Part shown: positions 9,731 through 30,080 of the stretch, piece by piece | How the letters are laid out: every line of letters begins with the position of its first letter | Numbering within the stretch: the first letter of the stretch is position 1 | Source of the DNA: a virus | Lineage: Duplodnaviria; Caudoviricetes | DNA length: 30,080 bases | IMG/VR virus record: IMGVR_UViG_3300012952_000079 | Coordinates: 1 to 30,080 of that record | Reading direction: 5' to 3' (one strand) | Program-made: the position numbers and the translations under genes | The notes under the pieces: generated by a model | Seen by the model: only the letters and a program-made list of their open reading frames with translations | What the model was told of the DNA's origin: nothing | The model's database searches: none

Positions 9731-10105
9731 ATGGCTAAAAGTGAATTTTTAAAAGCTGGAGAGTTAGATACTCCTATAGATTTGTATTATAATACTAATA
9801 CTCAAAATGACTATGGAGAAATTACTAAAAGTAAAACTTTACTTAAAACTATATGGGCTAAATTAATTACTACTGGAACTAAAGGAAATGAAAAAGTAGA
9901 AGATGATACTATAAGAGCAGAGAGTAAAATAAATTTTTTAGTGAGGTATGATTCAGATTTAGAAATGAACAGCTCTAGTATATCTCCTGAAGATTATTTT
10001 GAAGTACTATATGAATCTAAATACTGGAATATATCTAGTATGGAAACTTTAGGTAGAGGTAAAGGAATAATTATAAGATGTTATTATACAGATAATACTT
10101 TATGA
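9731..10105 (+). CDS. Head closure/head-tail adaptor (SPP1 gp16-like)
   Basis: AGELD..I, NDYGE, TIWA, FLVRY, YWNI pattern; synteny. Confidence 0.85.
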   Translation: MAKSEFLKAGELDTPIDLYYNTNTQNDYGEITKSKTLLKTIWAKLITTGTKGNEKVEDDTIRAESKINFLVRYDSDLEMNSSSISPEDYFEVLYESKYWNISSMETLGRGKGIIIRCYYTDNTL

Positions 10106-10545: not shown

Positions 10546-12062
10546 GAAAGGCTTTAAAATGGATGTTAATAGGAGATGGAACTGATGGATATAATCCGCA
10601 GTATGATATATATAATTTAATAGGTAATAATATATATCCTAATATAATACCTCAAAATGTAGGATTACCGGCTATCTCTTACAGGATAGAAAAAAATGAT
10701 CCTGATAAAATTAAAGAATTTAGAGCTCCTAATAATAGAGTATCTATAGAAATAGATGTAATGGCTAAAAATTATTCTTTAGTAAATCAGTTAAGTACTC
10801 TAGTTTTAAATCAACTTCATAGATATACAAACTCTTATAATAGTAATGATGATGATAGTATAGGATATGGTACTACTGAAGGAACTAATAAATATGGAAG
10901 GTTTGCCCCTGCTAGTACTGGAGAAGTACAATATGTAGGAGGTTTACAGATTCAATATCTAGAGTTTGAAAATTCTATAGAGAGTTTTGATGAGAAACTT
11001 GAAGTATATAAAAATACTTTATTATTTGATATGTTATATATAGATGATTTATCAACTTGGGGAGCTGATGTACTTTTAAAATTTAATGATTTTAATTTAA
11101 TGGCTACTAATGTAGGAGCTTCAGATAATCCTTTATATACTCAACCTATAGCAATAGATCAAGGAGTAAATTATCTTTTTACTCCATCTGTTTTAGTATC
11201 AGATAATAGTAATATATCTAGTAATACTTTAGATGGTATATATGAAAATTTTTATGATCCTTCAGGTACTAGTAATACTAATCGGCCTGATATTAAAAAA
11301 GATTCTTTTAATCCTCCTAAATATAATAGTAATAATTATTTAGAGTTTGGTAGTAATAAGTATTTAATATCATCTAAAGCTTCAGATAGAATAAATAGAA
11401 AATATAAAGAATTAACTTTTTTTACTGTATTAAAAATACCTGATTCTTATTTAACTGCTAAATCTACAGCTGTATTATTTAAAAAAAATAGTACTACAGA
11501 TAAAGTTACTTCTATATTTTTTAATACTGAAGTTATAGGTACTCCTACTTTTTTAGGAGGGGGTTTAGTAAAATTTAATGGAGGAGGTACAGCTTTAGAG
11601 GATGATGGGGCTGGAGGAGAAGATATAAGAGGATTTAATTTTTTTAGTGGTATAGTGTCTTGGCCAGCAATGGGATTTTATACTAATTTAAGTTTTGAAG
11701 ATCCTTTTTATTTTTCTGTAAGTTTTAAAAGAAAAGCAGGAGATAATACTTTATTAGAAGGTAGTTATGAACTTATTACATCTTCAGATTTTACAATATA
11801 TGGAGATACTAATGATTATTCAGAATGGGATGATACAGCTTCTACTTCTTTTAAAGAATACTTTTTTAATTTTGAAACTTTGCATAGTGATATTACTGGT
11901 TTTGATACTAAAGGAGCTGGTACTTTTGATTTAAATAATCCTTATAATTTATATGATTTTGTAATGTGGCCTGAAGCTTTAACTTTTGGTAATAATAAAT
12001 ACTTACAAATAAAAAGGAAAATAATAGAAAAGCATAATATGTATAATAGAACTACTAATTAA
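10539..12062 (+). CDS. Tail-terminator (DUF3168-like) domain fused to large beta-rich C-terminal domain, copy 1
   Basis: IYPNIIPQ...LPAISY...IEIDVMAKNY..V.QL...V...L terminator-like N-terminus; ~340 extra beta-rich residues. Confidence 0.65.
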   Translation: MVGKALKWMLIGDGTDGYNPQYDIYNLIGNNIYPNIIPQNVGLPAISYRIEKNDPDKIKEFRAPNNRVSIEIDVMAKNYSLVNQLSTLVLNQLHRYTNSYNSNDDDSIGYGTTEGTNKYGRFAPASTGEVQYVGGLQIQYLEFENSIESFDEKLEVYKNTLLFDMLYIDDLSTWGADVLLKFNDFNLMATNVGASDNPLYTQPIAIDQGVNYLFTPSVLVSDNSNISSNTLDGIYENFYDPSGTSNTNRPDIKKDSFNPPKYNSNNYLEFGSNKYLISSKASDRINRKYKELTFFTVLKIPDSYLTAKSTAVLFKKNSTTDKVTSIFFNTEVIGTPTFLGGGLVKFNGGGTALEDDGAGGEDIRGFNFFSGIVSWPAMGFYTNLSFEDPFYFSVSFKRKAGDNTLLEGSYELITSSDFTIYGDTNDYSEWDDTASTSFKEYFFNFETLHSDITGFDTKGAGTFDLNNPYNLYDFVMWPEALTFGNNKYLQIKRKIIEKHNMYNRTTN

Positions 12063-13537
12063 TGATCGGTAAAGCTATACATAGAATACTAAAAGATAAA
12101 ATTTCAGAGTTAAGTACTGGAGGTATTTTTCCTGTAGTAATGCCTCAAAACGCTAAATACTCAATAAGTAGTAATACAAATTATCCAGCTATAGTATATC
12201 ATCAGTTTACAGAACTGGAAACTTCAAAAGATAAAAATCCTAATATAGTTTTTTGTAGAGTAATGCTTCAAATAATAGGAGATTCATATAAAAGCATGGA
12301 GGATATAAGTACAAAAGTTAGAGATGTTTTAGATCATTATGCAGATAAATCTTTAGCTGGTTTAGTTAATGTACCTGGCTATACTGATGGAGGTTATAAT
12401 CATAGTTTTATCTCTAATGTAGATATACAAAATATATTTTATATAGAGGAGGAGGATGAGTATTTTGATAAACTAAATTTATTTACTAGAAGGATAGAGT
12501 ATGAAGTTTTTTATTATGATGATATAATAAAATTAAATTATGATATAAAAAATTCTGATGGATATACTCCTAGTAATCCTTTAGCTTTATGTTATGATTT
12601 TACACAAAGTAGATTAATGAGAGATGAACAGGCGGGAGTAGGAGGTATAGATTATGAAAGAATAATTACAGATAATTATAAAGTAGATTATGTTTTTAAT
12701 AAACTAGGTAGAGTAAAAAGTTTATCTTATAATACTTTAACTACTACAAATTATACTTATTATGAGTATATGATTTCAGGAGCTCCAGGCGGTTTACCTA
12801 CTTACAGGCCTAAATATCAAGATGGAATAAGTGAAAATACTTTACCTTTTTTAGAGTTTAATGAGTATAAATCTTTAGTAGTTAAATCTACAGATTCTCC
12901 TCTAGATACTCAGTTTGTAATGCCTTTTGGAGGTATGGTAATTTTAGTTTATAAACCTACTGGAACTGGTGGAGAAAATTATATTTTAGGATCTAATAAT
13001 GAAACTATAAATATAAGGCCTTTAATTTTTTCTCATAAAAAAGTAGGTAGTGATATTACTATACATTTTAAACCTAATGGAGTAGCTTTTGATGGTGCTT
13101 CTAGTGAAAGAACTCTAATAACTTCTACTGATTCTACTAATTTTTGGGATGCTGATTATCATTTTTTTTGCTTATCTTTGGGAGGTAGTAAGCAATATAC
13201 TGGAGGAAGTGTAAATCAAAAGGGCTGGTATGAGTATTTTAACTCAAATTATAATCCTAAACTAACTACAGGCCAGATACTTAAAGATAATAGTATAACT
13301 GGTAATACTGATAGTTTAGATAATGATATGGATAATAATTTTTTCATATCTAGGATAGGACAAAGGCAGTTAGATACATCAGCTGGATTTAGAATGTATG
13401 AGATGTTATTATTTATACCTAATGAAGTAGGAACTCATAATATAGATTCTGATTCAGCTCCTTTTCAACCTACAGATATAATATATAAAAAATTAAAAGA
13501 TTATATATATAAAAAATATACTAAATTAAATTTATAA
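12062..13537 (+). CDS. Tail-terminator (DUF3168-like) domain fused to large beta-rich C-terminal domain, copy 2
   Basis: MIGKAI..IL, IFPVVMPQ...YPAIVY...LQII..SY..M.DI...VR..LD; paralogous to upstream ORF. Confidence 0.68.
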   Translation: MIGKAIHRILKDKISELSTGGIFPVVMPQNAKYSISSNTNYPAIVYHQFTELETSKDKNPNIVFCRVMLQIIGDSYKSMEDISTKVRDVLDHYADKSLAGLVNVPGYTDGGYNHSFISNVDIQNIFYIEEEDEYFDKLNLFTRRIEYEVFYYDDIIKLNYDIKNSDGYTPSNPLALCYDFTQSRLMRDEQAGVGGIDYERIITDNYKVDYVFNKLGRVKSLSYNTLTTTNYTYYEYMISGAPGGLPTYRPKYQDGISENTLPFLEFNEYKSLVVKSTDSPLDTQFVMPFGGMVILVYKPTGTGGENYILGSNNETINIRPLIFSHKKVGSDITIHFKPNGVAFDGASSERTLITSTDSTNFWDADYHFFCLSLGGSKQYTGGSVNQKGWYEYFNSNYNPKLTTGQILKDNSITGNTDSLDNDMDNNFFISRIGQRQLDTSAGFRMYEMLLFIPNEVGTHNIDSDSAPFQPTDIIYKKLKDYIYKKYTKLNL

Positions 13538-13540
13538 GCT

Positions 13541-13759
13541 ATGAGTAAATTATATAAACCTACTTTAATTAAAGATTATGGGCCTCATAAAAAAGGAGAA
13601 AAATATGGATGGATAGATATAGAGGGATATACAAACCTTTTTAATAAAGGATGTATAGAAGATGAAGAAAATATACTAGAAAAAAAAGAAACTAAAAAAA
13701 CAAAAAAATCTAAAAAAGAAGATAAAACAGAAGAAAAAATAGAAGATAATAATAATTAA
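13541..13759 (+). CDS. Small hypothetical protein with Lys/Glu-rich tail
   Basis: 72 aa ORF in the structural operon. Confidence 0.7.
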   Translation: MSKLYKPTLIKDYGPHKKGEKYGWIDIEGYTNLFNKGCIEDEENILEKKETKKTKKSKKEDKTEEKIEDNNN

Positions 13760-13772
13760 AAAAAGTTAAAAT

Positions 13773-14228
13773 ATGGCAACTGTAATTAATGGTACTAATT
13801 TGGTACTAAAAGTAGATGACGCGGCCTCTCCAGCTGGAGATTATTCAGGATGTATAGCTGTGGCTGCAGCAACATCTGCAACAATTTCAATAACTACGGA
13901 TGTAGGAGAAGTAACAGATAAAGATTCAGGAGATCGTAAAGAATTTATAGGATTATCTAGCTCATGGACTTGTGATTGTGAGGTATTCTATAATGAAGAT
14001 GGTACTACGAATCCAGCTACTTTATTTCCTAGAATGTATGGCGACGCTACAGCTTCTCAAAATGGAGTAGCTCAATATCCTACAAAAGTATTAATAGAGT
14101 TTGATGGAGGAGGTAATGAATATAGAGGAGAGGGTTTTATTTCTAGTATGAGTATAACTGGAGGTACAGAGGACGCAGGAACTTACTCGGTTAGTATTAC
14201 TGGAACTGGCGAACTATCTTTAGTATAA
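13773..14228 (+). CDS. Major tail tube protein (TP901-1/Phage_tail_2-like), copy 1
   Basis: INGTNLVL, EVTDKDSG..KEF....SWT, GEGFISSMSI......TYSVSITGTGEL. Confidence 0.85.
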   Translation: MATVINGTNLVLKVDDAASPAGDYSGCIAVAAATSATISITTDVGEVTDKDSGDRKEFIGLSSSWTCDCEVFYNEDGTTNPATLFPRMYGDATASQNGVAQYPTKVLIEFDGGGNEYRGEGFISSMSITGGTEDAGTYSVSITGTGELSLV

Positions 14229-14262
14229 TAAAATTAATGTTAAATAAATAAAATAAAAAAAA

Positions 14263-14703
14263 ATGGCTGTTAAAACAATTTCAGGAAGTAGTTTAATTTT
14301 ATCTATAGATCTAGATGGAGCTGGAGCTGGAGCTTATGCTACTGTAGGCGGTAGTACATCCTGTACAGTATCAGTAAATCAAGAAACTATTGATACTACA
14401 AATAAAGAATCAGGAGGTAATAAAGCTTTTATTAATGGAGTACGAAGCTGGACTATGGACTGCGAAGCTTTATATACTCAAGGATCATCTGATGGAGAAG
14501 CTGTAAGATTTAAAACTCTTAATGACGCTTTACAAGCTGGTACTAGAATAAAGGTAAAATTTCATACTACAACTGGGCAAACTGGAGTAGTTTACTGGGA
14601 TGGATTTGGATATATTACTTCTTTATCAGTAAATGCTTCAGTAGCTGAATGGAGTACTTATTCTGTAAGTATTCAAGGAGATGGAGCTTTAACTACTACT
14701 TAA
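14263..14703 (+). CDS. Major tail tube protein (TP901-1/Phage_tail_2-like), copy 2
   Basis: ETIDTTNKESGG.KAFI.G.RSWT, G.GYITSLSV......TYSVSIQGDGAL. Confidence 0.87.
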   Translation: MAVKTISGSSLILSIDLDGAGAGAYATVGGSTSCTVSVNQETIDTTNKESGGNKAFINGVRSWTMDCEALYTQGSSDGEAVRFKTLNDALQAGTRIKVKFHTTTGQTGVVYWDGFGYITSLSVNASVAEWSTYSVSIQGDGALTTT

Positions 14704-14762
14704 TAAGTAAAGGGTACATAGTATAAATTATTTCTTTATATATTTAGAGAAATTTAATTATT

Positions 14763-15104
14763 ATGGTAGATAAAAAAACTATTGCTATAGGTGGAGAGGT
14801 AAGGCCTCTCCATTATGGGTTTTCTGCTCTTGCGGAGTGGTGCGATCTTACAGGATCAGGATTAAATGATTTATCCAAACTAGGAGAGAATTTATCTTTA
14901 TCTCATGCTATCCAATTAATTTATTGTGGTTTAAAACATGGAGCTAGAAGAAATAAAGCTGAATTTAATTATAATATAGAAGATGTAGGAGATTGGATAG
15001 ATGATGAAGGTATGGAAGTATTTACTGAAGCTATGGAGGTATTTAGTGAATCTATGGCTAAAATAAATACTGATGAAAAAAAAAAGAAAGTGAAGAAGAA
15101 GTAG
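14763..15104 (+). CDS. Tail assembly chaperone (lambda gpG analogue)
   Basis: Position between tube and tape measure; IGG..RPLHYGFSAL; ends in Lys run at slippery site. Confidence 0.82.
   Translation: MVDKKTIAIGGEVRPLHYGFSALAEWCDLTGSGLNDLSKLGENLSLSHAIQLIYCGLKHGARRNKAEFNYNIEDVGDWIDDEGMEVFTEAMEVFSESMAKINTDEKKKKVKKK
15080..15086 (+). other. Programmed -1 ribosomal frameshift site A_AAA_AAG
   Basis: In-frame slippery heptamer; the -1 frame opens at 15077 (after TGA 15074) and runs without stop into ORF 15128-15454. Confidence 0.82.
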
Positions 15105-15127
15105 ATCCTCCTACTCTAGAGCAGATA

Positions 15128-15454
15128 ATGAGTTTAGCTCTAGGATATTTAGATATGCCTATATCGGAGTTTTGGGATTTAACTCCTAGACAATTTCAGT
15201 TAAAACTGGATGGAAGGAGAGAGTATGAAGATATGCTACAGCGGTTTGAATGGGAGAGAGTAAGATTTCAAACTACTGCACTAATTAATAAAGATCGTAA
15301 GAGAAGTAATCAAATAAAACTTAAAGATTTAATTACTTTTGACTGGGAGAAAAAATTAGATCTTAAAAAGATAAATGAAGATAGGAAAAAAGCTATGTAT
15401 TTAATCGCTAAAGCTGAAAAAGAAAATAAAAAACAACAATCTAAAAAGGATTAA
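15128..15454 (+). CDS. Tail assembly chaperone C-terminal part (gpGT analogue, via -1 frameshift)
   Basis: EFWDLTPRQF motif typical of gpT-like segments; in -1 frame relative to upstream ORF. Confidence 0.8.
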   Translation: MSLALGYLDMPISEFWDLTPRQFQLKLDGRREYEDMLQRFEWERVRFQTTALINKDRKRSNQIKLKDLITFDWEKKLDLKKINEDRKKAMYLIAKAEKENKKQQSKKD

Positions 15455-17866
15455 ATGTCTAGTACTAAAACTTTATCCATATTTTTAAAACTCAATTCTA
15501 AAGAGTTTTCTTCTGGCCTTAAAAAAATAGAAGGCAAATTAAATAAATTTAGTAAGAATCTAGGAAAAATAGGATCATCTCTTACTACAAATGTATCTAT
15601 GCCTTTGATAGGTTTAGGAGCTGTAGCTGTTAAAACAGCTTCAGAGTTTGAAACTTCAATGACTAAAATACAAACTCTAGTAGGATTACCTAAAGAAGCT
15701 GTAGATCAACTTGGCGACGCTGTACTAAATTTATCAGGTAAAGTAGCTACAGGCCCTAAAGATTTAGCGGATGGTTTATATTTTCTAACTTCAGCGGGTT
15801 TAGACGCAGATAGTGCTATGAAGGCACTAGAAGCTACTGCTAAAGCTTCGGTATCAGGACTTGGAGATATGGAATCTTTGGCGACTGTAGCAGCAGCGGC
15901 TCAAAATGCCTATGGCGAAGAAGTATTAACATCATCTGAAGCTTTAGATATATTTGGATCTATGGTGCAGAGCGGTATGTTTAAGAGTGAAGAACTTGCT
16001 AATGTACTGGGTTCGCAACTTGGTTTAGCTTCTAATTTAGGTATAAGTATGGAGGAGGTAGGAGCTATGATTTCTACTTATACTAGAACAACTGGATCAG
16101 CTACTGACGCTACTACTGGTTTAAGTGGTATAATGATGAGTTTCGCTAAAATTACTCCAAAAGCTGAAAAAGCTTTAGCTGAAGCTACTGCAAGTATGGA
16201 AGGAGGGGCTATGAGTGCTGATGATTTGAGAGAGCACTTAGCAGAGAATGGTTTACAGGGAACTCTGATGATGTTAAAAGATCAATTTGAACAATCAGGA
16301 ATACCTTTATCAGAATTTTTTAGTAAATCTCAAGCTTTAAAAGGGGTACTAGGTGTAGTAGGTGCTCAAGGAGAGGAGTATGTAGAGATACTTAATAATA
16401 TGGAAGAAGCTCAGGGGTTTGTAAATAACGCTTTTGATGAAACTTCTGAAACTTCAGCTTTTAAATTTAAACAGAGTTTAGCTTCTTTACAATCAGCAGG
16501 AGTAAAACTAGGAGAAAGTTTAATGCCTATAGCTACTGGAATAGCGGATAAATTATCTTCTTTAGCTAATAGTTTTAGTAATATGAGTGAAGAAAGTAGA
16601 GCTAGAATCGTAAAACTAGGTTTAGCTTTAGTAGCACTTGGGCCTACATTATTAATCATCAGTAAAGTTATTAAATTATTTGGTTTTGTAGTAAAAGTTA
16701 TAAGATTTGCTAGAACTGCGGTAATAGCTTTTGGAGCGGCCGCTAGGGCTATGAATCCTATAGGGTTAGTAATAACTGCTATTATAGGTATGGTAGCTTT
16801 ACTTATTAAAAACTGGGACTGGACAAAGAAAAAAATCGTAGATGTAATAAATTATTTTATTGATTTATATAATGAATCTATGGCTTTTAAAATAGCTATA
16901 GAAGGTATTAAGTTTGCTTTTAAAGCTGTATGGAACTATATAGAGTATTTTTTCAATCAAGTAAAAACTATTTTTAGTGCTTTAGGTAATGCTATAGTAG
17001 ATTTAATCAACTTTAGATCTCCAGTAAGTAGGTTTAAAGACGCTATATCTGATATGAAAGATAACGCTACTGATTTTGTAGAAAAAACTGCTGATGATTT
17101 TGATACTATGATGGATAATATCCAAAGTAAAGATAAAATAGAATTTATAGATGAATCTGATATAGATAATGCTATAGGAGATGTAAAAGGACAATTAGAA
17201 GGATTTGTAGATGATATGAAAGGAGCTCTAGGTGTTGATGATTTACTTGGTACTGGAGGTACTGAAGAAATAGATCCTGTAGATGTAGATTTAATAGCTA
17301 ATACAGATGATATTACTTTTGAAGGAGAAGATCCATCTGTAGAAGTTAATCCAGTAGTAAAAACTGATAAACTACAGGAAACTATGAATGAAATAGGATC
17401 GGCTACAGAAACTGCTTTCAGTGCTATGGCTAATGCTCAAGGAGATGAAGATTTTACTGTAGTAGATCAAATAAAAAAACAAACTAGAGAAATAATATCA
17501 GCAAATATAGCGGCTGCAGTATCTAGTTTCGCTAAAGACGCGTTTGCTAAATTTGGTATTTTAGGGGCTGTAATGGCTGCGGCTGGAGGGAGTATAGTAG
17601 GATCATTATTTAACTCTATAATACCTCCTTTTGCGGAGGGAGGTATGGTATCAGGGCCTACTTTAGCTATGGTAGGAGAGGGAGCTGGTACAAGTATGAT
17701 TAATCCTGAAGTAATAGCTCCTTTAGATAAACTTAAAGGAATGATAGGAGATAGAGGAGGAGTAGCTAGAGTACATGGTAGTATATCAGGTAATGATATA
17801 TTATTAAGTAGTGATAGAACATCTAGTACTAGATCTAGGATAGCTGGATCTTCTACTAGGTTTTAA
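15455..17866 (+). CDS. Tail tape measure protein (TP901 core)
   Basis: 803 aa Ala/Gly-rich helical protein; ASEFETSMTKI, NPIGLVI hydrophobic stretch, C-terminal FAEGG.V.GPT...VGE...PEVIAPL. Confidence 0.93.
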   Translation: MSSTKTLSIFLKLNSKEFSSGLKKIEGKLNKFSKNLGKIGSSLTTNVSMPLIGLGAVAVKTASEFETSMTKIQTLVGLPKEAVDQLGDAVLNLSGKVATGPKDLADGLYFLTSAGLDADSAMKALEATAKASVSGLGDMESLATVAAAAQNAYGEEVLTSSEALDIFGSMVQSGMFKSEELANVLGSQLGLASNLGISMEEVGAMISTYTRTTGSATDATTGLSGIMMSFAKITPKAEKALAEATASMEGGAMSADDLREHLAENGLQGTLMMLKDQFEQSGIPLSEFFSKSQALKGVLGVVGAQGEEYVEILNNMEEAQGFVNNAFDETSETSAFKFKQSLASLQSAGVKLGESLMPIATGIADKLSSLANSFSNMSEESRARIVKLGLALVALGPTLLIISKVIKLFGFVVKVIRFARTAVIAFGAAARAMNPIGLVITAIIGMVALLIKNWDWTKKKIVDVINYFIDLYNESMAFKIAIEGIKFAFKAVWNYIEYFFNQVKTIFSALGNAIVDLINFRSPVSRFKDAISDMKDNATDFVEKTADDFDTMMDNIQSKDKIEFIDESDIDNAIGDVKGQLEGFVDDMKGALGVDDLLGTGGTEEIDPVDVDLIANTDDITFEGEDPSVEVNPVVKTDKLQETMNEIGSATETAFSAMANAQGDEDFTVVDQIKKQTREIISANIAAAVSSFAKDAFAKFGILGAVMAAAGGSIVGSLFNSIIPPFAEGGMVSGPTLAMVGEGAGTSMINPEVIAPLDKLKGMIGDRGGVARVHGSISGNDILLSSDRTSSTRSRIAGSSTRF

Positions 17867-17894
17867 ACTTTGTATAATTTTAAATAAATAAAAA

Positions 17895-18080
17895 ATGATA
17901 GATTTTATATTAAATAATTGGTTAGAGTTATTAATCGCTGTTATGGCTTTAGCTAAAGTAGTAGTAAATTTAACTCCTACAGAGAAGGATAATCAAGTAT
18001 TTACTTATATAGATAAAATAATAAATGCTATAGTACCTAATAAAAATAAAAAAGGTAAAAAACATAAAAACTGCTGCTAG
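17895..18080 (+). CDS. Small membrane protein (possible holin-like)
   Basis: N-terminal hydrophobic helix, LTPTEKD motif, basic C-terminus. Confidence 0.6.
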   Translation: MIDFILNNWLELLIAVMALAKVVVNLTPTEKDNQVFTYIDKIINAIVPNKNKKGKKHKNCC

Positions 18081-18084
18081 TTAA

Positions 18085-20724
18085 ATGTCTTGGAAGAAAT
18101 ATAATTGTAGATTTTATTCAGAGAATACTGTAGATGGAGAGCCAGATGTATGGTATCAGATAGCTATATATCAAGAAACTGGATCAGGTACAGAAGTAGA
18201 ATTTAAATGTACTTCTAATGCCTTTACTTTAAAAATGGATGGAGGAGATGATCCTTTAACATCTTCTATAAAAACTACTTCTCTAGAGTTTGATATGATT
18301 ATAGAAGGGCCTGATCAAGAACAGATAATAGATGATATACTATCTGTAAGTACTGGTAATGAGAATGAATACTCTGTAAAAGTATCTATATATATACCTG
18401 GCACAGGATGGAGTACTTTATGGAGGGGAGTATTACTAGGAGATTTAGTACAGGTACAAGATGTAGGATTAAATAATATAATAAAAGTACAAGCTATAGA
18501 TGGTTTAGGCCAGTTAAAGTATAAACTTTGGGATAGTGCAAGTTATGGAGGTATAAGGAGCTGTATGTATATTATTAAAGCTTGTTTAAGGAATATACCT
18601 TTGTTATCTAATGTATATGGAACTGGAGATAATTTTATAGCTCATATACCTTTTTATTATAATAAAGCTATGGCTGGAGGATTAACTGGAGCTAATGGTG
18701 TAGATAGTGATACATGGAGAGAAAATGTATCTCATGATCCTCTATCTTTAACCTGTGTTAATACTGAAGTATTTAAAAATGATGATGGTAGTTACTGGAG
18801 TTATTATGATATTTTAGAACAGATTTTAGGAGCTTTTCAAAGTAGGTTAATGATGAACATGGTTAATGATGGATCATCTCCTAAAGCTATGTGGTTTATT
18901 CAGAATCCTTTTGTATATCACGACTGGAATAATAACCTAGATACTGATAATCTTATATTTTTTCATGGAAACGATTTAGGAACTGATGACGCTTTAAGTT
19001 ATATTAATAATTTTAGTACTAAATTAACTGATCCATCTACTAGATTATCAGGAGGATTAACTACTTTTACTCCTCCTTTATTAAGTTATAAGAGTGTTTA
19101 TAATCATAAAATAATGCAGAATTTAGCTCTAGGGCCTGTATCTTTTAATAGTCAAGAATACTCTGAAGCGAATCCTAGTACTACAGCTGATTTAATAGTA
19201 GATACTCCTACTAATGCTTTTAGCTATAGAATAGTAAAAGATCAAGATGAAACTGATGTGCCTGGTAATGGTGGGTTTCACAGGCCTAGTATGAGTAAAG
19301 TACTAGTAACTGGAGAGCTAGAGTATTATCCATACCATTGGGCAGCTTGGGATTTTTTTAATCAAAATAATTACACTATAAATTTTGGAGCTTATACTAA
19401 TGGTATAGGTGTAGATCAATATGTAGCCGCTAGAATGGGTTTAATGGTATCTTCTAGAAGTGAGTTTAATTATAGTGGTACTGATTATTTAGTATATAAT
19501 TTTTACTATTTAGGGAGTAGTAGATTTGGTAATTTAACTGGCTCTGTGCCTTGGGTAGGGCCTGGAGAAACTTCTGTAGGATCTCCATATATAGGTTTTT
19601 GGAATACTACTTATCCATCTATATTTACTTATGATGATTTTGATACAGGAGATGATGTATATCCATGGGGTACAGATACTAACGAATGGTTATACTGGTT
19701 TAATAATGACGCTTCTATAAGTACTTCTAATCATTGGGGGTTTTTTACTCCTTATGTACATTATGTAAATAGTTATTTAATAGCTGAAGGATCAGCTTAT
19801 TCAGATTTTCAGGACGCTTGGAGCTTTTTTAATTATAGTAATCTTTTAGGAAGTGGAGTACAGGCCTTTAGTGTAGAATCTCCAGCTGTGCCAGTAGTAG
19901 GTAATCAGTATGGATTTACTCCTGATACAGGGGTAATAAATCATATAGATTTAATATATGCTTTTGGTAGAGATATGTGGGATAATGATGGAACTGGTAA
20001 TTATTATACTTGCTGCTTAGACTGGACTAACTGGAAAGAGCTATTACATGAAGATAGAGGAATAGGTTTTGGTTATAATCTTAATAATGTAAGAGTATAT
20101 ATTTTAGGTAATGAAAATATAGATGATGGTTATTATGATTATAGTATAGGAGAGTTTACTAATGGTAATGGAACTCCATCAGATTCAGATACTCAGGATC
20201 CTGAAATAATAATAGGAGATGAGCCCGCTTATCATGGTAACGCTGTAGAAGAAACTAATGAAGGTATTAATCCTGTTTATTTTGGGCAGTTTTGGATAAG
20301 AAATACAAATCCAGCGACTAGTACTAATGATCCTTTTTATTTAGGAGTAGATACTACTAGATGGATATGTAAATGGGAGAGTGATGACGCTGGAAACTGG
20401 TTAAAGTTACATGAGAAACGCTGTAAAATGGAAGTAGGGCACAGGTACAAACTAGGACAAAAACTAGATGTATCTTTTATAGATAAATCTCCTGAAACTG
20501 CATATACTGGAGATTTTTTAATGACGCACTTGGCTTTTTCAGGTATTTATTTATGGAGCTCAGGAAGTACTGAGCAGAGTAACTGGATAGATAAACCTTT
20601 TATGATTGCAGGAGGGGAGTTTAACGCTGGTACTATGGAATGGAAAGTACAGCTTATGGAGTGTAATAATTTTTACTGGAGTAATTTAACTAATACTAGT
20701 TATTCAAATAATAATAATTCTTAA
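18085..20724 (+). CDS. Large tail tip/baseplate protein
   Basis: 879 aa after tape measure; WRGVL...AIDGLGQLK motif like tail hub proteins; aromatic/Asn/Gly-rich. Confidence 0.7.
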   Translation: MSWKKYNCRFYSENTVDGEPDVWYQIAIYQETGSGTEVEFKCTSNAFTLKMDGGDDPLTSSIKTTSLEFDMIIEGPDQEQIIDDILSVSTGNENEYSVKVSIYIPGTGWSTLWRGVLLGDLVQVQDVGLNNIIKVQAIDGLGQLKYKLWDSASYGGIRSCMYIIKACLRNIPLLSNVYGTGDNFIAHIPFYYNKAMAGGLTGANGVDSDTWRENVSHDPLSLTCVNTEVFKNDDGSYWSYYDILEQILGAFQSRLMMNMVNDGSSPKAMWFIQNPFVYHDWNNNLDTDNLIFFHGNDLGTDDALSYINNFSTKLTDPSTRLSGGLTTFTPPLLSYKSVYNHKIMQNLALGPVSFNSQEYSEANPSTTADLIVDTPTNAFSYRIVKDQDETDVPGNGGFHRPSMSKVLVTGELEYYPYHWAAWDFFNQNNYTINFGAYTNGIGVDQYVAARMGLMVSSRSEFNYSGTDYLVYNFYYLGSSRFGNLTGSVPWVGPGETSVGSPYIGFWNTTYPSIFTYDDFDTGDDVYPWGTDTNEWLYWFNNDASISTSNHWGFFTPYVHYVNSYLIAEGSAYSDFQDAWSFFNYSNLLGSGVQAFSVESPAVPVVGNQYGFTPDTGVINHIDLIYAFGRDMWDNDGTGNYYTCCLDWTNWKELLHEDRGIGFGYNLNNVRVYILGNENIDDGYYDYSIGEFTNGNGTPSDSDTQDPEIIIGDEPAYHGNAVEETNEGINPVYFGQFWIRNTNPATSTNDPFYLGVDTTRWICKWESDDAGNWLKLHEKRCKMEVGHRYKLGQKLDVSFIDKSPETAYTGDFLMTHLAFSGIYLWSSGSTEQSNWIDKPFMIAGGEFNAGTMEWKVQLMECNNFYWSNLTNTSYSNNNNS

Positions 20725-24237: not shown

Positions 24238-24983
24238 GCTTTAGGCCTAGATTAAATAAATTTGTTTATGATTTTATTAGTAATCATAAAAAATCTAATG
24301 TAGTAGGTATAATAAGCGATACTCATTTTCCTTTTGCTCATAAAAATTATTTACCTTTTATTTATGAAACTTTTAATAAATTTCAGGTTAATAGAGTTAT
24401 TCATATTGGAGATCTCGTAGATGGAAGTGCTTGGAACATGTGGGAAAAAGATAGCGATATGCCATCAGGAGGTAAAGAAGCAGAGCTAGCTCAAAGGGAT
24501 ATAGATAAATTATTTAAAGCTTTTCCTGATGGAGATTTAATGATGGGCAACCATGATGAATTAATAAATCGCCGTATGTTGAAGCACTCTATACCTAAAA
24601 AATTCTATAAATCTTTTGCGGAAGCTTGGAATTTTCCTAAAGGATGGAAAACTCATAATTATTTAGAAATAGATAATGTATTATATCTTCATGGAACTGG
24701 AAAAAGTGGAGTAAATGCCGCTGTAAGTTTTATGCAAGATTATAGGCAATCAGTAGTAATAGGCCATACTCATAGCTCTGGAGGAGTAAATTATAGAGCT
24801 TCATATAAAGAGTTATGCTTCGCTCTTAATGTAGGATGTTTGATAAATGTTAATAGTATGGCTTATAGTTATGGAAAAAACTTTAGTAAGAAACCTACTC
24901 TAGGATGTGGTATAGTAGTAGATGGTAAACATGGTTTTTTTATACCTATGGATTTAGGAAAAAAAATAAGTTATTCAAAGTAA
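24234..24983 (+). CDS. Calcineurin-like metallophosphoesterase
   Basis: ISDTH, HIGDLVD, GNHD, HG, GHTH motifs. Confidence 0.9.
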   Translation: MSFRPRLNKFVYDFISNHKKSNVVGIISDTHFPFAHKNYLPFIYETFNKFQVNRVIHIGDLVDGSAWNMWEKDSDMPSGGKEAELAQRDIDKLFKAFPDGDLMMGNHDELINRRMLKHSIPKKFYKSFAEAWNFPKGWKTHNYLEIDNVLYLHGTGKSGVNAAVSFMQDYRQSVVIGHTHSSGGVNYRASYKELCFALNVGCLINVNSMAYSYGKNFSKKPTLGCGIVVDGKHGFFIPMDLGKKISYSK

Positions 24984-25071
24984 TTAACAATTTATAGTTA
25001 ATAACAATCATCATTAAAATTTTCTTTTTAAATAGTTTATAGGTTAATTTGTGTAAACAAAAAAACAGATT

Positions 25072-25278
25072 ATGAATTATACAGAAACTTTAAGGCCTAA
25101 TATGAAAGTATGGCTAGTTAATGAAATAATAAGATTAAGAGTATTAAATAATACTCCTGTAGATTTTAAAAAAATTAAACCATCTAATGATATAAAGGAA
25201 TGGCTTTTTACTCATAGTTTTAAAGATCTTCATAAAATGCAGATAGATTTAATAGCGAAGCTAAAAGATAGGGGGTAA
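25072..25278 (+). CDS. Hypothetical protein, first gene of replication/early block
   Basis: 68 aa ORF after an intergenic gap with near-consensus TTAATTTG (25044-25051) and AAAACAGA leader. Confidence 0.7.
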   Translation: MNYTETLRPNMKVWLVNEIIRLRVLNNTPVDFKKIKPSNDIKEWLFTHSFKDLHKMQIDLIAKLKDRG

Positions 25279-25298
25279 GTAATACAGCTCTATCTGTA

Positions 25299-25306
25299 TA
25301 TATTTG
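25299..25306 (+). promoter_or_regulatory. Possible -7 element TATATTTG just after a hairpin (25266-25295)
   Basis: Exact TAnnTTTG match; only 3 nt before ATG 25310. Confidence 0.4.
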
Positions 25307-25309
25307 TAT

Positions 25310-25630
25310 ATGATTAATATATACGATTTTATGGATGAGCTGTATTACTTATTAGATGTTAATAATATATCAATGGAGGAGGATATGGAGAGAGATAGAG
25401 CTATACGATTATTATTAAAAACAAAAAAAAGAATGGCTACAGAAATAATTAATGATAAAAATATACTAGATGTTTACAGAAAAAAAGGAATGGAGGGGAT
25501 TAAAAAATACTTTACTAGGCAGGTATGTTATTTATATTCTACGAGTTTTTGTTATGATGTATTATTTTATCATTATAAAAATGACTGGAGAAAATTAGAA
25601 CTTATAATTAAAGATAAATTAAATGACTAG
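25310..25630 (+). CDS. Hypothetical protein
   Basis: ORF from track (TTG 25304); ATG at 25310 or 25331 more likely. Confidence 0.65.
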   Translation: MINIYDFMDELYYLLDVNNISMEEDMERDRAIRLLLKTKKRMATEIINDKNILDVYRKKGMEGIKKYFTRQVCYLYSTSFCYDVLFYHYKNDWRKLELIIKDKLND

Positions 25631-25934
25631 AAGAATACTTACTACTGAAGAAAAAGCTGATGTACTTAATACTATAGAGCAATCTTTTAAAAAATTATCT
25701 GAAGATCAGAAAAAAACTATATTATATAAAATAGGAATTTCAAAAATAGATATAGAGAGATTATCAGAAGCTGAACTATTAACAAAAGTTAAAACTGAAT
25801 ACGATACTTTAATATCAAGGATAGATATAAATAATTTTAGTGTAGATTCAAAATATAAAACAGCAGCGGAGTATATGAGCGGAGATAAAAAATCAGAATT
25901 TAAAACAGATGTACAAACATATAAAAACTTATAA
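25623..25934 (+). CDS. Hypothetical protein
   Basis: 103 aa ORF overlapping upstream stop. Confidence 0.7.
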   Translation: MTRRILTTEEKADVLNTIEQSFKKLSEDQKKTILYKIGISKIDIERLSEAELLTKVKTEYDTLISRIDINNFSVDSKYKTAAEYMSGDKKSEFKTDVQTYKNL

Positions 25935-25935
25935 C

Positions 25936-26082
25936 ATGGAACAATTAGATACAAGGGATTACAGCTTATTATTATCTGTACTCCATAATGAAAAACTAGA
26001 TCCTAAAGATAAAGTAGCTTTAGATTTAGTTAAATTAAAATTATTATCAAAATTAAATAAACTAGAAGCATATTATGAATAA
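25936..26082 (+). CDS. Small hypothetical protein (48 aa, not in ORF track)
   Basis: MEQLDTRDYSLLLSVLHNEKLDPKDKVALDLVKLKLLSKLNKLEAYYE; fills the gap between neighbours exactly. Confidence 0.65.
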   Translation: MEQLDTRDYSLLLSVLHNEKLDPKDKVALDLVKLKLLSKLNKLEAYYE

Positions 26083-26482
26083 AGAAAAACTTAAAGAAAT
26101 ATATACTAAATATCAATTAGAAAAAGATGATATTTTTATATTAAAATTTGGAGGTAAAGATAAACCTATAATTACTAGAAGCGGTATAGAACGAATCCAG
26201 GCCATTTTAGGTATAGAATGTACTTTTAAAATAGAAAAAATATCAGAAGATCATAAAAGCGTTATTATAATGGGTACAGGATGTATTTTTAAATCAGATG
26301 ATAGAGGGCAAAAAATGCCTAAAGTAATGGCCCAAAGTTTTGGAGAAGTTTCTCCAGCTAATAATAGATCCAGTTATCCTGTAGCTATGGCGGAAAAAAG
26401 AGCTTTAGGTAGGGTAGTACTAAAAATGGCTAATCTTTTTGGATTTTATTCAGAAGATGAGGCAGAGGAGTTTAAAAAATGA
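26075..26482 (+). CDS. Putative single-strand annealing/recombination protein
   Basis: IITRSGIERI and AMAEKRA..R..LK....G.YSEDE pattern reminiscent of Rad52/RecT-like annealase cores; in replication block. Confidence 0.45.
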   Translation: MNKEKLKEIYTKYQLEKDDIFILKFGGKDKPIITRSGIERIQAILGIECTFKIEKISEDHKSVIIMGTGCIFKSDDRGQKMPKVMAQSFGEVSPANNRSSYPVAMAEKRALGRVVLKMANLFGFYSEDEAEEFKK

Positions 26483-26727
26483 GAAGAAATTACTCATATA
26501 TAGATGATAAAGGTTTTGTAAGAACTTGGATTATAATTTGTAATGAAGGAGATTTATTAGTAAAATGTAGTAAAGATGATTTACATAATTTACTTTTAGA
26601 TATGTATAAGGATAAAGAAGTAAATATAATTGAGTTTTTTGAGTATAAATCTGATGAGTATTATATGTTTATTGAAGGAGAAAATTATGATGTAAATAAA
26701 GATTATAAAAATGAAATCAGTAGATAG
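26479..26727 (+). CDS. Hypothetical protein
   Basis: 82 aa ORF, ATGA coupling. Confidence 0.65.
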   Translation: MRRNYSYIDDKGFVRTWIIICNEGDLLVKCSKDDLHNLLLDMYKDKEVNIIEFFEYKSDEYYMFIEGENYDVNKDYKNEISR

Positions 26728-27151
26728 ATTAATAAGAATATCTTGTTATTATAATAAAGTAAAGTTTGCTGATTTTTATAATGTATTTAGTAATCCTAGA
26801 ACTAAAGACGCTAGGAGTATGGTTTATCATATATTACATAATAAAGAGAATTTTACTATATATGATATTTCGGAACTATTTAATAAATCAAAAGATCATA
26901 TAAAAGATATGTTAGAATATCATAATACAGAGTATGAAGTAATAAATCATTATACTAGACAATATGAAAACATATTAACTCAATTTAATAACTGGAATAA
27001 TACAGATCTAGATTTAGCTTATAGTATTATTAAAACTAAATATGATTATGATACTGATATAAAGTATGAACAGATACTAAATGAAAATAATCGTTTAGAA
27101 CATCAAGTAGATATATTAAAAATTAAATTAAATAAAAAAAGTTATGTATAA
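26711..27151 (+). CDS. HTH protein resembling DnaA domain IV, with C-terminal coiled coil
   Basis: DARSMVYHIL......TIYDISELFNK..DH resembles the DnaA C-terminal HTH signature. Confidence 0.5.
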   Translation: MKSVDRLIRISCYYNKVKFADFYNVFSNPRTKDARSMVYHILHNKENFTIYDISELFNKSKDHIKDMLEYHNTEYEVINHYTRQYENILTQFNNWNNTDLDLAYSIIKTKYDYDTDIKYEQILNENNRLEHQVDILKIKLNKKSYV

Positions 27152-27485
27152 AATAAGAGGTAAAATTTTAAATAGTAGAATAGAAACTATAGAGAGTAAA
27201 TCAGGAGATACTTTTGAAAAAATGTATTTAACAATAGAAGAAACTGATACTGGTTTTAGCCATAAACATCAGTTTGAAATTTTTGGTAAAGAATCTATAG
27301 CTTTACAAAAAGATAAAGTAAAAGTAGATAGATATGTTAATATAGAATTTTATATAAAAAGTAATGAATGGAAAGATAAATTTTTTAATACATTAAATAT
27401 AAAAAATATAATTCTAGAAGATGATATAGTAATGCCTGATCAGGTATATGATAATGTAGATGAGAATGATAATACTCCATTTTAA
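27144..27485 (+). CDS. Single-stranded DNA-binding protein (DUF3127-like OB fold)
   Basis: I.GKI, FEIFG, V.IEF.I.S.EW..KFFNTL and acidic tail ending DNTPF. Confidence 0.75.
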   Translation: MYKIRGKILNSRIETIESKSGDTFEKMYLTIEETDTGFSHKHQFEIFGKESIALQKDKVKVDRYVNIEFYIKSNEWKDKFFNTLNIKNIILEDDIVMPDQVYDNVDENDNTPF

Positions 27486-27505
27486 AAATTAAAAATAGAA
27501 ACAAT

Positions 27506-28294
27506 ATGGCGAAATATAGACAGATACATACAACTTTTTGGAATGATCCTTTAATACTGGATCTAACTCCAGAACAGAAGTATTTTTATATATACTTACT
27601 TACTAATCCTAATGTAAAACAATGTGGAATTTATGAGATTTCAGTAAGGCAAATTACTTATCATACTGGATATAATAAAGAAACTGTAGAAAAGCTTTTA
27701 GAGTTATTTATAGGACTTAATAAAATAGTATTAAGTAAAAAAACTAATGAAATAGCTTTAGTAAATTTTTTAAAGTATAATTATTCAGCTTCTCCTACTG
27801 TTAAAAAGTGTATAGAGAAGGAACTAGAAGAAGTAAAAAATAAAGAACTTATAAAGTATATATATAGTATAGATACACTAGATATAGAGTATAATAGTAA
27901 TAATAAGAATAAGAATAATAATAATAATAAAAAAAAGAATAATAATAATAATAGTTTTCCTACAACAGAAGATTCTTTTAAAGATTATGTTATTAAATTA
28001 GAATATAAAGAACATCATAAAGATTTTATAGATTACTGGACTGAAGGATGGCCGCAAAAAATGAGATTTCAATATGAGAAAACTTTTAGTATAGAAAAAA
28101 GGTTATCTAGATGGGCTAAAAATCAATTTGCTACTAAAAAAAATGGAATGCCAGATTTTTATGATAAAGCTTATGCTCAAAGAATAGCACAAGATCAAAG
28201 TCAACAAAAAAAATATAGAGAACACTTGAGAAGTTTAGGATATGAGCAGAAAATGAGTTATAATGGAGAGCCATCATGGATAAAAAGTAAATAA
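27506..28294 (+). CDS. Phage replication initiator / replisome organiser
   Basis: MAKYRQIHTTFWNDP....LTPEQKYFYIYLLTN.....CGIY N-terminal wHTH; Asn/Lys linker; C-terminal F.DYWTE....MRF..EKTF...RL.RW. Confidence 0.78.
   Translation: MAKYRQIHTTFWNDPLILDLTPEQKYFYIYLLTNPNVKQCGIYEISVRQITYHTGYNKETVEKLLELFIGLNKIVLSKKTNEIALVNFLKYNYSASPTVKKCIEKELEEVKNKELIKYIYSIDTLDIEYNSNNKNKNNNNNKKKNNNNNSFPTTEDSFKDYVIKLEYKEHHKDFIDYWTEGWPQKMRFQYEKTFSIEKRLSRWAKNQFATKKNGMPDFYDKAYAQRIAQDQSQQKKYREHLRSLGYEQKMSYNGEPSWIKSK
27892..27955 (+). repeat. (AAT)n/(AAGAAT)n low-complexity tract in the initiator gene
   Basis: aatagtaataataagaataagaataataataataataaaaaaaagaataataataataatagt encoding NSNNKNKNNNNNKKKNNNNNS. Confidence 0.8.
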
Positions 28295-28295
28295 T

Positions 28296-28706
28296 ATGGA
28301 TTTAAAAAAATTACCTATAAAAGATATTTATAATTTAGTAATAGAAGGAGAAATAGATCCTTTAAAAGCTGTTATAGTATTAAAAGAAATAGAAAAAAAG
28401 GCAAAAGAATATAAAGCTATGATAGATGAAATAGCTTTAGATGAGATTACTAAATATGGTAGAGGAGGAACTGAAATAGATGGTTTTTCTATAAGTACTA
28501 GATCATCAGCTGGAAGATGGGATTTTAAACATATAAAAGAAATTCAGGATCTAGAAAAACAGCTAAAAGAACTTAAAGATAAACATAAAGGAGCTTATAA
28601 TAATATGACTAGAAATTTAACTACTTTAGGAGAAGGAGGAGAAGTAATAATACCCGCTAATTTTAAACAGGGTAAAGATATAATAGTAATAAGTAAAAAT
28701 AAATAA
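28296..28706 (+). CDS. Hypothetical protein
   Basis: 136 aa; GEIDPL..., RWDF, coiled coil, GEVI.PA. Confidence 0.75.
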   Translation: MDLKKLPIKDIYNLVIEGEIDPLKAVIVLKEIEKKAKEYKAMIDEIALDEITKYGRGGTEIDGFSISTRSSAGRWDFKHIKEIQDLEKQLKELKDKHKGAYNNMTRNLTTLGEGGEVIIPANFKQGKDIIVISKNK

Positions 28707-28707
28707 A

Positions 28708-28821
28708 ATGGAATATATTATAATAGGATTTAGTTTATTAATAGGTTTTTTAGCAGGAATGTATTTAACTACTCAAATAGGGATCTGGATTAAAAATAAA
28801 ATTAAAAATGGTAAATTATAA
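28708..28821 (+). CDS. Small single-TM protein (37 aa, not in ORF track)
   Basis: MEYIIIGFSLLIGFLAGMYLTTQIGIWIKNKIKNGKL; starts 1 nt after upstream stop and overlaps next start. Confidence 0.65.
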   Translation: MEYIIIGFSLLIGFLAGMYLTTQIGIWIKNKIKNGKL

Positions 28822-29134
28822 AAAAGTTTATTGTAATTATTTTGGATATGATGTAGGAGATCTAATAAAGTGTGAGATATGTTTATATGATTTACATCTT
28901 CCTTTTAGTGAAAAAACTAAAGTTAGAGAAGCTGTAGATATACATCATATATCTCCTAGAGGTTTAGGAGGATCAAAGTTAAAAGATTATCCTGAAAATT
29001 TAGTGGCTTTATGTAGAGAGTGTCATATAGAAGTAGAACTATGTAAAGAGAAAAATAAAAGATGTAAGATAATTCATCTAAAGAATATAATTAAGAAACT
29101 GGAAGAAGAACAGATAGGTAAAATAAATTGGTAA
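28808..29134 (+). CDS. HNH endonuclease-like protein
   Basis: CEIC...DIHHI.PRG.GG.....ENLVALCRECH. Confidence 0.85.
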   Translation: MVNYKKVYCNYFGYDVGDLIKCEICLYDLHLPFSEKTKVREAVDIHHISPRGLGGSKLKDYPENLVALCRECHIEVELCKEKNKRCKIIHLKNIIKKLEEEQIGKINW

Positions 29135-29337
29135 TGACTAAACTATATATGAATAATAAAAAGAATAATATAGAAGATACATCTATTACAGAATACTTTA
29201 CTCATATAGGAGAGAGAGCTGTAATATACAATAAGAGAATTAATAAGGAGATAGAAGGCCTGGATAAATTTAATAAGGAACAGAAGAAAATAATTAAAGA
29301 ATTTTTTATACATCTATTAAAGGAGTTAGATAAATGA
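29128..29337 (+). CDS. Hypothetical protein
   Basis: 69 aa ORF; true start uncertain (29134 or 29149). Confidence 0.55.
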   Translation: MVMTKLYMNNKKNNIEDTSITEYFTHIGERAVIYNKRINKEIEGLDKFNKEQKKIIKEFFIHLLKELDK

Positions 29338-29348
29338 AAATAATTAAT

Positions 29349-29356
29349 TATATTTG
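29349..29356 (+). promoter_or_regulatory. Bacteroidota-type -7 element TATATTTG
   Basis: Exact TAnnTTTG match at the start of a 110-nt intergenic gap. Confidence 0.7.
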
Positions 29357-29359
29357 TAT

Positions 29360-29435
29360 ATCCTCTTATGAGGTTTTTGTATTGTTTCTGTTTTGTAAGG
29401 GCTTATATACTTTTAGTATGTAGGCCTTTGCTGTT
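29360..29435 (+). ncRNA. Candidate trans-acting small RNA (5' mini-hairpin, U-rich seed, 3' hairpin)
   Basis: Follows promoter; CCTC-TTAT-GAGG hairpin, seed TATTGTTTCTGTTTT (29380-29394) complementary to several gene leaders, 14-bp stem 29397-29429. Confidence 0.55.
29397..29429 (+). terminator. Terminator-like hairpin
   Basis: AAGGGCTTATATAC-TTTTA-GTATGTAGGCCTTT, 14 bp with 3 G:U pairs; short U tail. Confidence 0.6.
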
Positions 29436-29447
29436 TAATATATATAT

Positions 29448-29672
29448 ATGAATGAGATAAATATAAATGATTTACTTAATATGGCTGGTAATAATGTATA
29501 TGATACAGAGTATAGCCATAAGCTTACTATCAGTTGTAAGCATAGTACTTTTATAATGTTTAAGGAACTAAAGGAGAAACTAAAGCTACTAGGTATTAAG
29601 GTTAATAATGCCCAGTTATTTGAGTATATGATAGTAGAGATGTATAATAGTAATTTAAATAGTTTAGAGTAA
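29448..29672 (+). CDS. Hypothetical protein (possible small DNA-binding protein)
   Basis: 74 aa; strand-helix-helix-like pattern KLTISC...TF..FKELKEKL....NNAQLFEYMI. Confidence 0.6.
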   Translation: MNEININDLLNMAGNNVYDTEYSHKLTISCKHSTFIMFKELKEKLKLLGIKVNNAQLFEYMIVEMYNSNLNSLE

Positions 29673-30007
29673 TGGCTTACCTTCCTACTACTACTAAATA
29701 CAAATGGATAAGGAAGATTAAAAAAGATTATAATAAATCTTATTCAGATCCTGAAATAGCTAAGCTATATAATACTACTAGATGGAAGAAGATGAGGGGC
29801 TGGTATATTAAAAGAAATCCTATATGTGTTATGTGTAAGGAAAAAAATATAATTAAAGAAGCTTATGTAGTAGATCATATTAAAGAAGTAGCTGATGGTG
29901 GTAGTATGTTTGATTACTCTAACCTTCAGAGTTTATGTGATCCATGCCATAGAAGTAAAACTAGTTTAGCTGTACATAATAGATATAAAAAGAAAAATAA
30001 TAAATAA
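29672..30007 (+). CDS. Packaging-associated HNH endonuclease (HK97 gp74-like)
   Basis: YNTTRWKKMR...NPICVMC...VVDHI...GG...NLQSLCDPCH..KT; precedes terS on the circular map. Confidence 0.9.
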   Translation: MAYLPTTTKYKWIRKIKKDYNKSYSDPEIAKLYNTTRWKKMRGWYIKRNPICVMCKEKNIIKEAYVVDHIKEVADGGSMFDYSNLQSLCDPCHRSKTSLAVHNRYKKKNNK

Positions 30008-30037
30008 AAAAAAAATAAAATTTTTGAGGAGTAGATA

Positions 30038-30049
30038 AGGGGAGGGGGC
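30038..30049 (+). other. G-rich tract in the presumed cos/packaging region
   Basis: GGGGAGGGGGC in otherwise ~A/T DNA between HNH and terS, where HK97-like phages carry cos. Confidence 0.4.
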
Positions 30050-30080
30050 TTTTAATCATAAATTCATTTTCTCTCCATAA

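Follow-up and report, generated by a model that had tools for sequence, protein, structure and literature searches.

What is the function of the short intergenic unit at positions 29349-29437 of a tailed-phage genome, in which a promoter-like motif, a U-rich tract and a strong hairpin follow one another and the tract is complementary to start regions of the phage's own genes? The window analyzed here is the entire IMG/VR record IMGVR_UViG_3300012952_000079 (30,080 nt), the genome of a 30 kb tailed phage with ~29% GC and with its long ORFs nearly all on one strand. A preliminary description, made from the sequence alone, had proposed a small RNA antisense to the leaders of early genes, including the replication initiator. 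Covariation and target ranking bore out the predicted pairing with the initiator and other non-structural leaders, but the G:U argument of that description and its proposed target at 25062 were not supported. The unit likely encodes a small RNA that switches off the initiator and several small genes, since its seed is complementary to start regions and the two have changed together from lineage to lineage.

PHROG and Pfam scans of the window identified terminase, portal, protease, capsid, tail, endolysin, SSB, replication initiator and two HNH nucleases. Intergenic TAnnTTTG motifs and A-rich leaders without a Shine-Dalgarno (SD) sequence point to a Bacteroidota host, as do the top bacterial matches of the initiator, found in Bacteroidales MAGs, and the distant similarity of the capsid to Cellulophaga phage phi39:1. 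No cultured close relative was found in the phage collection searched. The records are linear and CheckV completeness for such records is 40-46%; the similar lengths of six relatives (28.7-30.1 kb) and the common end of many of them ~0.7 kb past the unit suggest near-complete genomes. Between terS and terL (window 536-2706) lie a DNA methyltransferase and a PAPS-reductase-like gene, a slot filled by other genes in relatives. The prohead protease ORF (window 6647-7753) carries an N-terminal ATPase/kinase-like extension, also present in G002 and G006 and missing in G001, G005 and G010.

The unit, on the + strand throughout, starts with the promoter-like motif TATATTTG (29349-29356), which matches TAnnTTTG, described as the Bacteroidota sigma-A -7 consensus positioned at -12 to -5 (PMC9723704) and predicting here a start site at ~29360-29361. 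It is followed by a 5' mini-hairpin, CCUC-UUAU-GAGG (29362-29373), identified by folding, with a 5' hairpin predicted in 16 of 19 genomes, and by a single-stranded U-rich seed (29374-29394), of which different targets use different halves. The mean unpaired probability of the seed was 0.90 in this genome and 0.52-0.95 over the 19 genomes. A 17-bp hairpin with an imperfect U tail, UGUUUA (29395-29437), closes the unit and is predicted to be an intrinsic terminator, possibly leaky; termination may be weak because the tail is imperfect. This hairpin had been described as 14 bp long; it is present, but it comprises 17 bp including G:U pairs (29395-29431). Its folding z-score was -6.3, none of 200 shuffles folded equally well, and it is the only terminator-like match on the + strand between 24900 and 30080. 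The promoter-like motif at 29349 likely makes a terminated RNA of ~75 nt.

Two other products of the unit were considered and rejected. A small peptide encoded inside it is not conserved, as the internal ATG frames are broken or missing in many relatives. A gene on the minus strand with the motif as its leader is not supported by any conserved ORF, and a minus-strand promoter motif occurs in just 2 of 19 genomes. TATATTTG also precedes the portal gene (window 5427), the start codon of which is TTG, and ORF 25310 (window 25299), so the promoter sequence alone cannot separate early from late genes. In the one marine metatranscriptome run searched, 0.10 of the words were present. A 748-nt metatranscriptome contig spans 29207-29933 with seven differences and bridges promoter and hairpin; it is strandless, without defined ends and possibly derived from DNA, and hence is no evidence for the RNA. 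Over 81-20080, the metatranscriptome contigs among the matches listed were short or diverged pieces only.

The seed and all five complementary sites of the preliminary description were found where it had placed them, and pairing energies were calculated with the ViennaRNA duplex and cofold routines. The main predicted target is the leader and AUG of the replication initiator gene (27506-28294; phrog_6251, E 3e-45), where the helix of 15 bp seen earlier was confirmed and grows with three more G:U pairs to 18 bp over the whole AUG (27492-27509, + strand). Further predicted targets on the + strand are a 14-bp site in the leader of ORF 4431 (4400-4413), downstream of promoter motif 4381; a 12-bp site directly before ATG 4691 (4678-4689); and a two-part site before ATG 5084 (5059-5081), the top-ranked gene start in the cofolding scan, whose second part (5070-5081) is complementary to the seed's 5' half. 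No function is known for three of the targets. Out of 46 curated gene starts, the seed formed its four best duplexes with 27506, 5084, 4431 and 4691, and none of 500 dinucleotide-shuffled seeds paired as well with the initiator leader. The fifth site (25062-25069, + strand, 8 nt) ranked 14/46 and 22/48 among gene starts, which is background in this genome, and is not supported as a target. A possible extra target lies upstream of a 48-aa gene with a likely start at 25936 (25901-25930, + strand). In several relatives the corresponding leader is highly ranked. Because the site shares sequence with conserved codons of the gene before it, this target is uncertain.

When all 26-nt stretches were scanned blindly against curated starts, the seed ranked 1 of 751 blocks by a thin margin (-12.2 versus -12.0); with automatic starts it ranked 8-13 of 751. 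Exact-k-mer counting across the window did not single out the unit, and throughout the window many leaders have exact 9-10-mer matches to A/U tracts of low complexity. The single-genome case is thus decent, with statistics that are modest and not decisive. Two repeats were also observed. An AAT/AAG repeat tract within the initiator gene (window 27879-27954), coding poly-N/K, could be a replication origin, as judged from phage initiators in general. A 32-nt imperfect inverted repeat (window 4258-4374) lies between the terL stop and promoter motif 4381 and may be a terminator or a structure of another kind.

When the HNH, 29448 and initiator proteins were used as queries, 7, 8, 34 and 25 loci were found. 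Duplicates, three weak matches (L072-L074), three distant HNH matches and 20 distant initiator loci were left out; the 22 distinct copies of the region that were kept include 19 with the initiator as well, and the tests were run on these 19. All 22 distinct related loci have the motif, the U-rich seed and the strong hairpin in the same layout and position. TAnnTTTG is exact in 15 of the 19 genomes and has one mismatch in four, at a fixed place after the upstream stop. The unit folds with z-scores of -4.2 to -8.3 across these genomes, and the linker is mainly unpaired. Compensatory changes were found at 15 of 16 hairpin pairs in an 18-row alignment, exceeding all 500 shuffles and all slid controls; in this alignment the hairpin sequence appears free to vary, with its pairing maintained. 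L053 and L065 have an extra gene after the hairpin, ahead of the 29448 homologue, without any alteration of the unit. L057 (9875-9989) has an extra, apparently duplicated hairpin between seed and terminator that partly masks the 3' half of the seed; its initiator leader fits the 5' half. A covariance model built from seed classes A-D (defined below) recovered these and class F (F at E about 0.005) and missed class E and phi39:1. On 7 of the 20 distant initiator loci this model gave nothing below E 0.5, and no such unit was seen in the inspected, listed part of six bacterial loci with similar initiators (15 were found).

The preliminary description had named two comparative checks, seed/leader covariation and the ranking of early-gene leaders against shuffled controls, and the relatives came out in its favor on both. 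The initiator leader ranked in the top three gene starts in 15 of the 19 genomes (2.3 expected) and in the top five in 18, the exception being G006 (rank 11/51). Cognate seed-leader pairs had a mean energy of -13.7 kcal/mol versus -10.7 kcal/mol for permuted pairs (0 of 100000 permutations, uncorrected for kinship). To allow for kinship among the genomes, the seeds were sorted into class A (13 genomes), class B (3), class C (2) and class D (1), with E and F in a distant clade where a similar unit is located after the initiator; both the classes and the limits of the seeds were chosen manually. When only the initiator leader was considered, the pairing of each class with its own leader ranked 1/24 for classes A-D and 1/720 for A-F, and covariation within class A was significant (p = 0.002). 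The two best leaders per genome also gave 1/720, with all 15 swaps penalized, the E-F swap by just 0.7. The SSB-leader control was null (p = 0.64, class rank 14/24), as was the HNH-leader control (p = 0.69; its class rank is invalid, as one class is empty).

Individual genomes illustrate this covariation. G004 has a quite different seed, UAUGUUUUAAGUUUUU, that matches its initiator leader AAAAACUUAAAACAUG over 16 bp; its first early gene, a gene with a good seed match in classes B and D, has a site of 13 bp. L065 likewise has 13 bp at the first early gene. In L069 a C-G to G-C swap has occurred on both the seed and the leader side of an 11-bp match. Watson-Crick matches of at least 10 nt fell in start regions in 36 of 61 cases, where 4.4 were expected and shuffled seeds gave a mean of 5.0 and a maximum of 11 (n = 150). 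The halves of the seed in use vary between genomes, the 5' half being matched in G006, G009 and L057, and initiator sites end at -2 to +7 relative to the AUG.

The deviations from Watson-Crick pairing had been described as G:U-compatible, as expected for RNA-RNA pairing. A type-blind test over 19 genomes was negative (C>U 14/79 versus G>A 5/25, p = 0.77), and a test of the G:U share gave p = 0.03 in one of four settings and 0.08-0.90 in the rest. With G:U allowed, 50 of 347 seed matches lay in start regions versus 23.7 expected, an enrichment of only twofold, with wide pairing in coding sequence. The shuffled-seed p value exceeded 0.05 in 5 of 19 genomes. In a blind ungapped scan, the unit reached the top 5% for 13 of the 22 genomes and ranked poorly in G007 (351/384) and G008 (163/577); the ranks of G005 and L061 are inflated by the unit's own hairpin arm. 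Deep tree nodes are weak (57-69% support).

In all six full genomes examined, as well as in G011 and phi39:1, terminase and portal are separated by a cluster of small ORFs, partly swappable and with a promoter motif of its own (window 4431-5368). Strong sites were found before 3/4 of its ORFs in this genome, 3/4 in G001, 2/2 in G005 and 3/5 in both G006 and G010, and weaker ones in G002. The first ORF of the cluster is unrelated among five genomes (no BLAST match between them), yet its site is retained. The 5084 homologue ranked 1-4 in 5 of 6 genomes, and the homologues of 4900, an ORF abutting its upstream neighbor, never have a site. Several genes have been inserted ahead of the initiator in G013 (L027:6878 and 9707); it is one of these inserted genes that the matching leader heads there, and the initiator leader is outside the nine best matches. 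G011 (L025:7386 and L082:2873) carries a near-identical ~23-nt leader before unrelated genes, which suggests that leader cassettes are copied by recombination. A far-reaching version of the proposal, in which the single RNA would be a master regulator that sets initiator dosage, silences leader-tagged swappable early cassettes and makes the seed class an immunity or incompatibility group, appears unlikely to us.

The genes downstream of the unit bear on its role. A 74-aa gene (29448-29672, + strand) begins 16 nt past the hairpin without a promoter motif of its own and may encode a ribbon-helix-helix (RHH) protein: its nearest named clusters are MetJ and RHH_1, at 0.91, and the assignment is a lead only. 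The protein had no PHROG match, no Pfam match above cut-off and no convincing PDB match, and its fold was an all-helix model of low confidence (pLDDT 58). The next gene (29672-30007, + strand; phrog_144, E 4e-24) encodes an HNH endonuclease near the record end. It is likely packaging-associated, because it sits before the record end that terS, at the record start, follows. At the motif level, none of the 19 genomes has a TAnnTTTG after the unit and before the next ATG. Without a second promoter motif, 29448, HNH and probably terS/terL across the genome end would need read-through of the hairpin, and the RNA is probably the terminated leader of a packaging operon. That the unit probably heads this operon is a point that the preliminary description missed. 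It had also noted the lack of a recognizable CI protein; HTH_3, tyrosine integrase and resolvase matches were indeed lacking in all five records, but the possible RHH protein, a lead only, is encoded directly downstream. The 67-aa protein upstream (29134), considered as a Q-type antiterminator, had no PHROG, Pfam or Atlas match, and no antirepressor was named among the scanned ORFs.

The reading we favor, and consider reasonably probable, is that a packaging-operon leader RNA doubles as a trans-acting brake on the initiator and early genes. The seed of the predicted RNA would pair with the start regions of the initiator and the three small terminase-portal genes and probably block ribosome loading at those leaders. 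The RHH-like and HNH genes, and probably terminase as well, would be expressed by read-through of the hairpin. With rising numbers of genome copies and of the RNA, the initiator and early genes would be translated less, and replication would give way to packaging. The layout of the unit, its conservation, and its complementarity to and covariation with the leaders are observed; transcription of the RNA, its pairing in the cell, and the sign and timing of its effect are inferred. Repression would be the likely outcome given the site position and the precedent of GibS, because the sites lie at the AUG, because initiation in Bacteroidetes is reported to rely on structure and upstream adenines and not on SD sequences (PMC6847099), and because GibS pairs at such places.

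Whatever its role, the unit very probably encodes a pairing RNA of some kind. The same leaders could be paired by a constitutive repressor that provides copy control of a non-integrated carrier state and excludes superinfecting kin of the same seed class, possibly with the RHH-like protein. The initiator is the most constant target, the five records have no integrase, resolvase or HTH_3 match (absences that are soft, because the records are linear and about 40-46% complete by CheckV), and the 29349 promoter could fire from the start, because it shares its consensus with the target-cluster motif 4381. There are precedents as well: repB of pMV158 is described as being under an antisense RNA and a transcriptional repressor (PMC4485353), and c4 variation as yielding P1/P7 heteroimmunity (PMC12197685). 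Set against these points are the position of the unit at the head of packaging genes, the lack of a partition gene among the ORFs annotated by the PHROG and Pfam scans and the status of the RHH assignment as a lead only, and constitutive repression seems to us rather improbable. In a cis arrangement, the early transcript would extend to this hairpin and fold its 3' end onto the initiator leader, which lies 1.9 kb upstream; alternatively, processing of that end would release the RNA. All genes lie on one strand and the hairpin is the sole + strand terminator-like match of the 24900-30080 region; however, a promoter motif is conserved directly before the unit, and three strong targets are in a separate unit behind promoter motif 4381, which leaves this route very improbable.

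Two explanations dispense with RNA pairing. If the unit were an ordinary terminator or attenuator with a U-rich flank, its matches would stem from A-rich, SD-less leaders and shared ancestry; A/U tracts do match many leaders, and blind ranks are modest in several genomes. Such an origin is hard to reconcile with class-specific reciprocal matching in the presence of null control leaders, with the dinucleotide-shuffle controls and with matches of 11-16 bp for wholly different seeds, and we give it very little weight. The complementary sites could instead be DNA operators bound, for instance, by the 29448 protein; a single inverted copy would follow the 29349 promoter, and RNA would not pair at all. 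The sites at 4400, 25062 and 29380 do lie just downstream of promoter-like motifs, the negative G:U test is compatible with an operator, and protein-site co-evolution could also yield covariation. This explanation is disfavored, and in our view highly unlikely, because the sites at 27492, 4678 and 5059 have no nearby TAnnTTTG and track the AUG, because non-overlapping seed halves are matched in different genomes, and because the presumed recognition strand of the protein ignores seed class (K-x-N-I-S in A and D; KLSISC in A, B and C); in addition, the single inverted copy is unpaired between two hairpins.

Compared with known systems, the predicted RNA likely works like P1 c4, StxS and GibS and is a member of none of these families. 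No Rfam family matched; an Rfam scan of the window to E 5 returned two chance matches elsewhere, and none was found in six related loci at the gathering score. As described for P1 and P7, c4 is an RNA of ~77 nt, encoded away from its target sites, that blocks translation at the ribosome-binding region (PMC12197685; PMC5320573). Matched changes in RNA and target separate related phages in that system, and RNA-target covariation was also found here. The three stem-loops of c4 and its pairing loops a' and b' are its own, and it is further described as cut by RNase P and as controlling an antirepressor (PMC12197685; PMC5320573); here a mini-hairpin, one single-stranded seed and one long terminator-like hairpin are found and the predicted targets are the initiator and early genes. 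StxS and lambda 6S are short promoter-to-terminator units that head late genes (PMC7547250), a layout also seen here at the motif level, with no second promoter motif. StxS is a terminated late leader that acts in trans and represses phage mRNA at the ribosome-binding site; it is also cut by RNase E from a 258-nt RNA, bound by Hfq and dependent on Q for read-through, with rpoS and stx1B as targets (PMC7547250). In the present genome, by contrast, a Q-like protein was not found, and pairing is predicted with replication and early genes.

GibS of Bacteroides thetaiotaomicron, in a group described as being without obvious Hfq or ProQ, has a long single-stranded 5' seed and pairs repressively around SD-less start codons (PMC7366714). 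A dedicated promoter motif, an unstructured seed, a terminator-like hairpin and the lack of a conserved ORF are GibS-type features that were all found in the unit. GibS is a host metabolic sRNA with no phage role in that account (PMC7366714), and the likeness is one of design. Plasmid antisense RNAs offer a further comparison. RNAII is a plasmid antisense RNA that is cis-encoded and has one target, and CopG is an RHH protein. In pMV158, RNAII has a single-stranded 5' tail, one hairpin and a U stretch, and inhibits initiator translation beside a small repressor (PMC4485353). The unit here, in contrast, lies on the same strand as the initiator, 1.9 kb away, and has several imperfect targets; it is not transcribed opposite its target strand, as a cis-encoded RNA would be. 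Characterized phage antisense RNAs mostly target one phage gene or host genes (PMC12197685), and the preprint on PreS describes host targets. In the main-text sections covered of this 2025 review (PMC12197685), which also tabulates 38 uncharacterized sRNAs, none of the phage RNAs listed targets both the leader of the phage's initiator and a set of early leaders. No description of this RNA family was found in the literature searched, which covered few subscription papers. The unit defines a new family, and a new form of the known antisense control in phages.

The design of seed against leader may recur in other Bacteroidota phages, for example in the cultured Cellulophaga phage phi39:1. In that phage (NC_021804.1; L095:7548-7612), a U/G-rich tract and a terminator directly follow the capsid gene. 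The tract is complementary, over 11 nt, to a leader motif that recurs ahead of gp1, gp2, gp6 (twice) and gp38; each of these five matches lies in a start region, and the tract ranked 2/718 in the blind scan (shuffle p 0.01-0.04). This analogue is a lead only, because it is missing after the capsid gene in 4 of 4 relatives.

If the proposal is true, these phages would have a phage-internal RNA regulon that includes the replication initiator, in a lineage with SD-less leaders, and it would explain how small phages without an evident repressor time the passage from replication to packaging and give a role to terminated late-leader RNAs. The six natural seed-target classes are ready-made specificity swaps, and the family would then offer compact, orthogonal translational switches for Bacteroidota.
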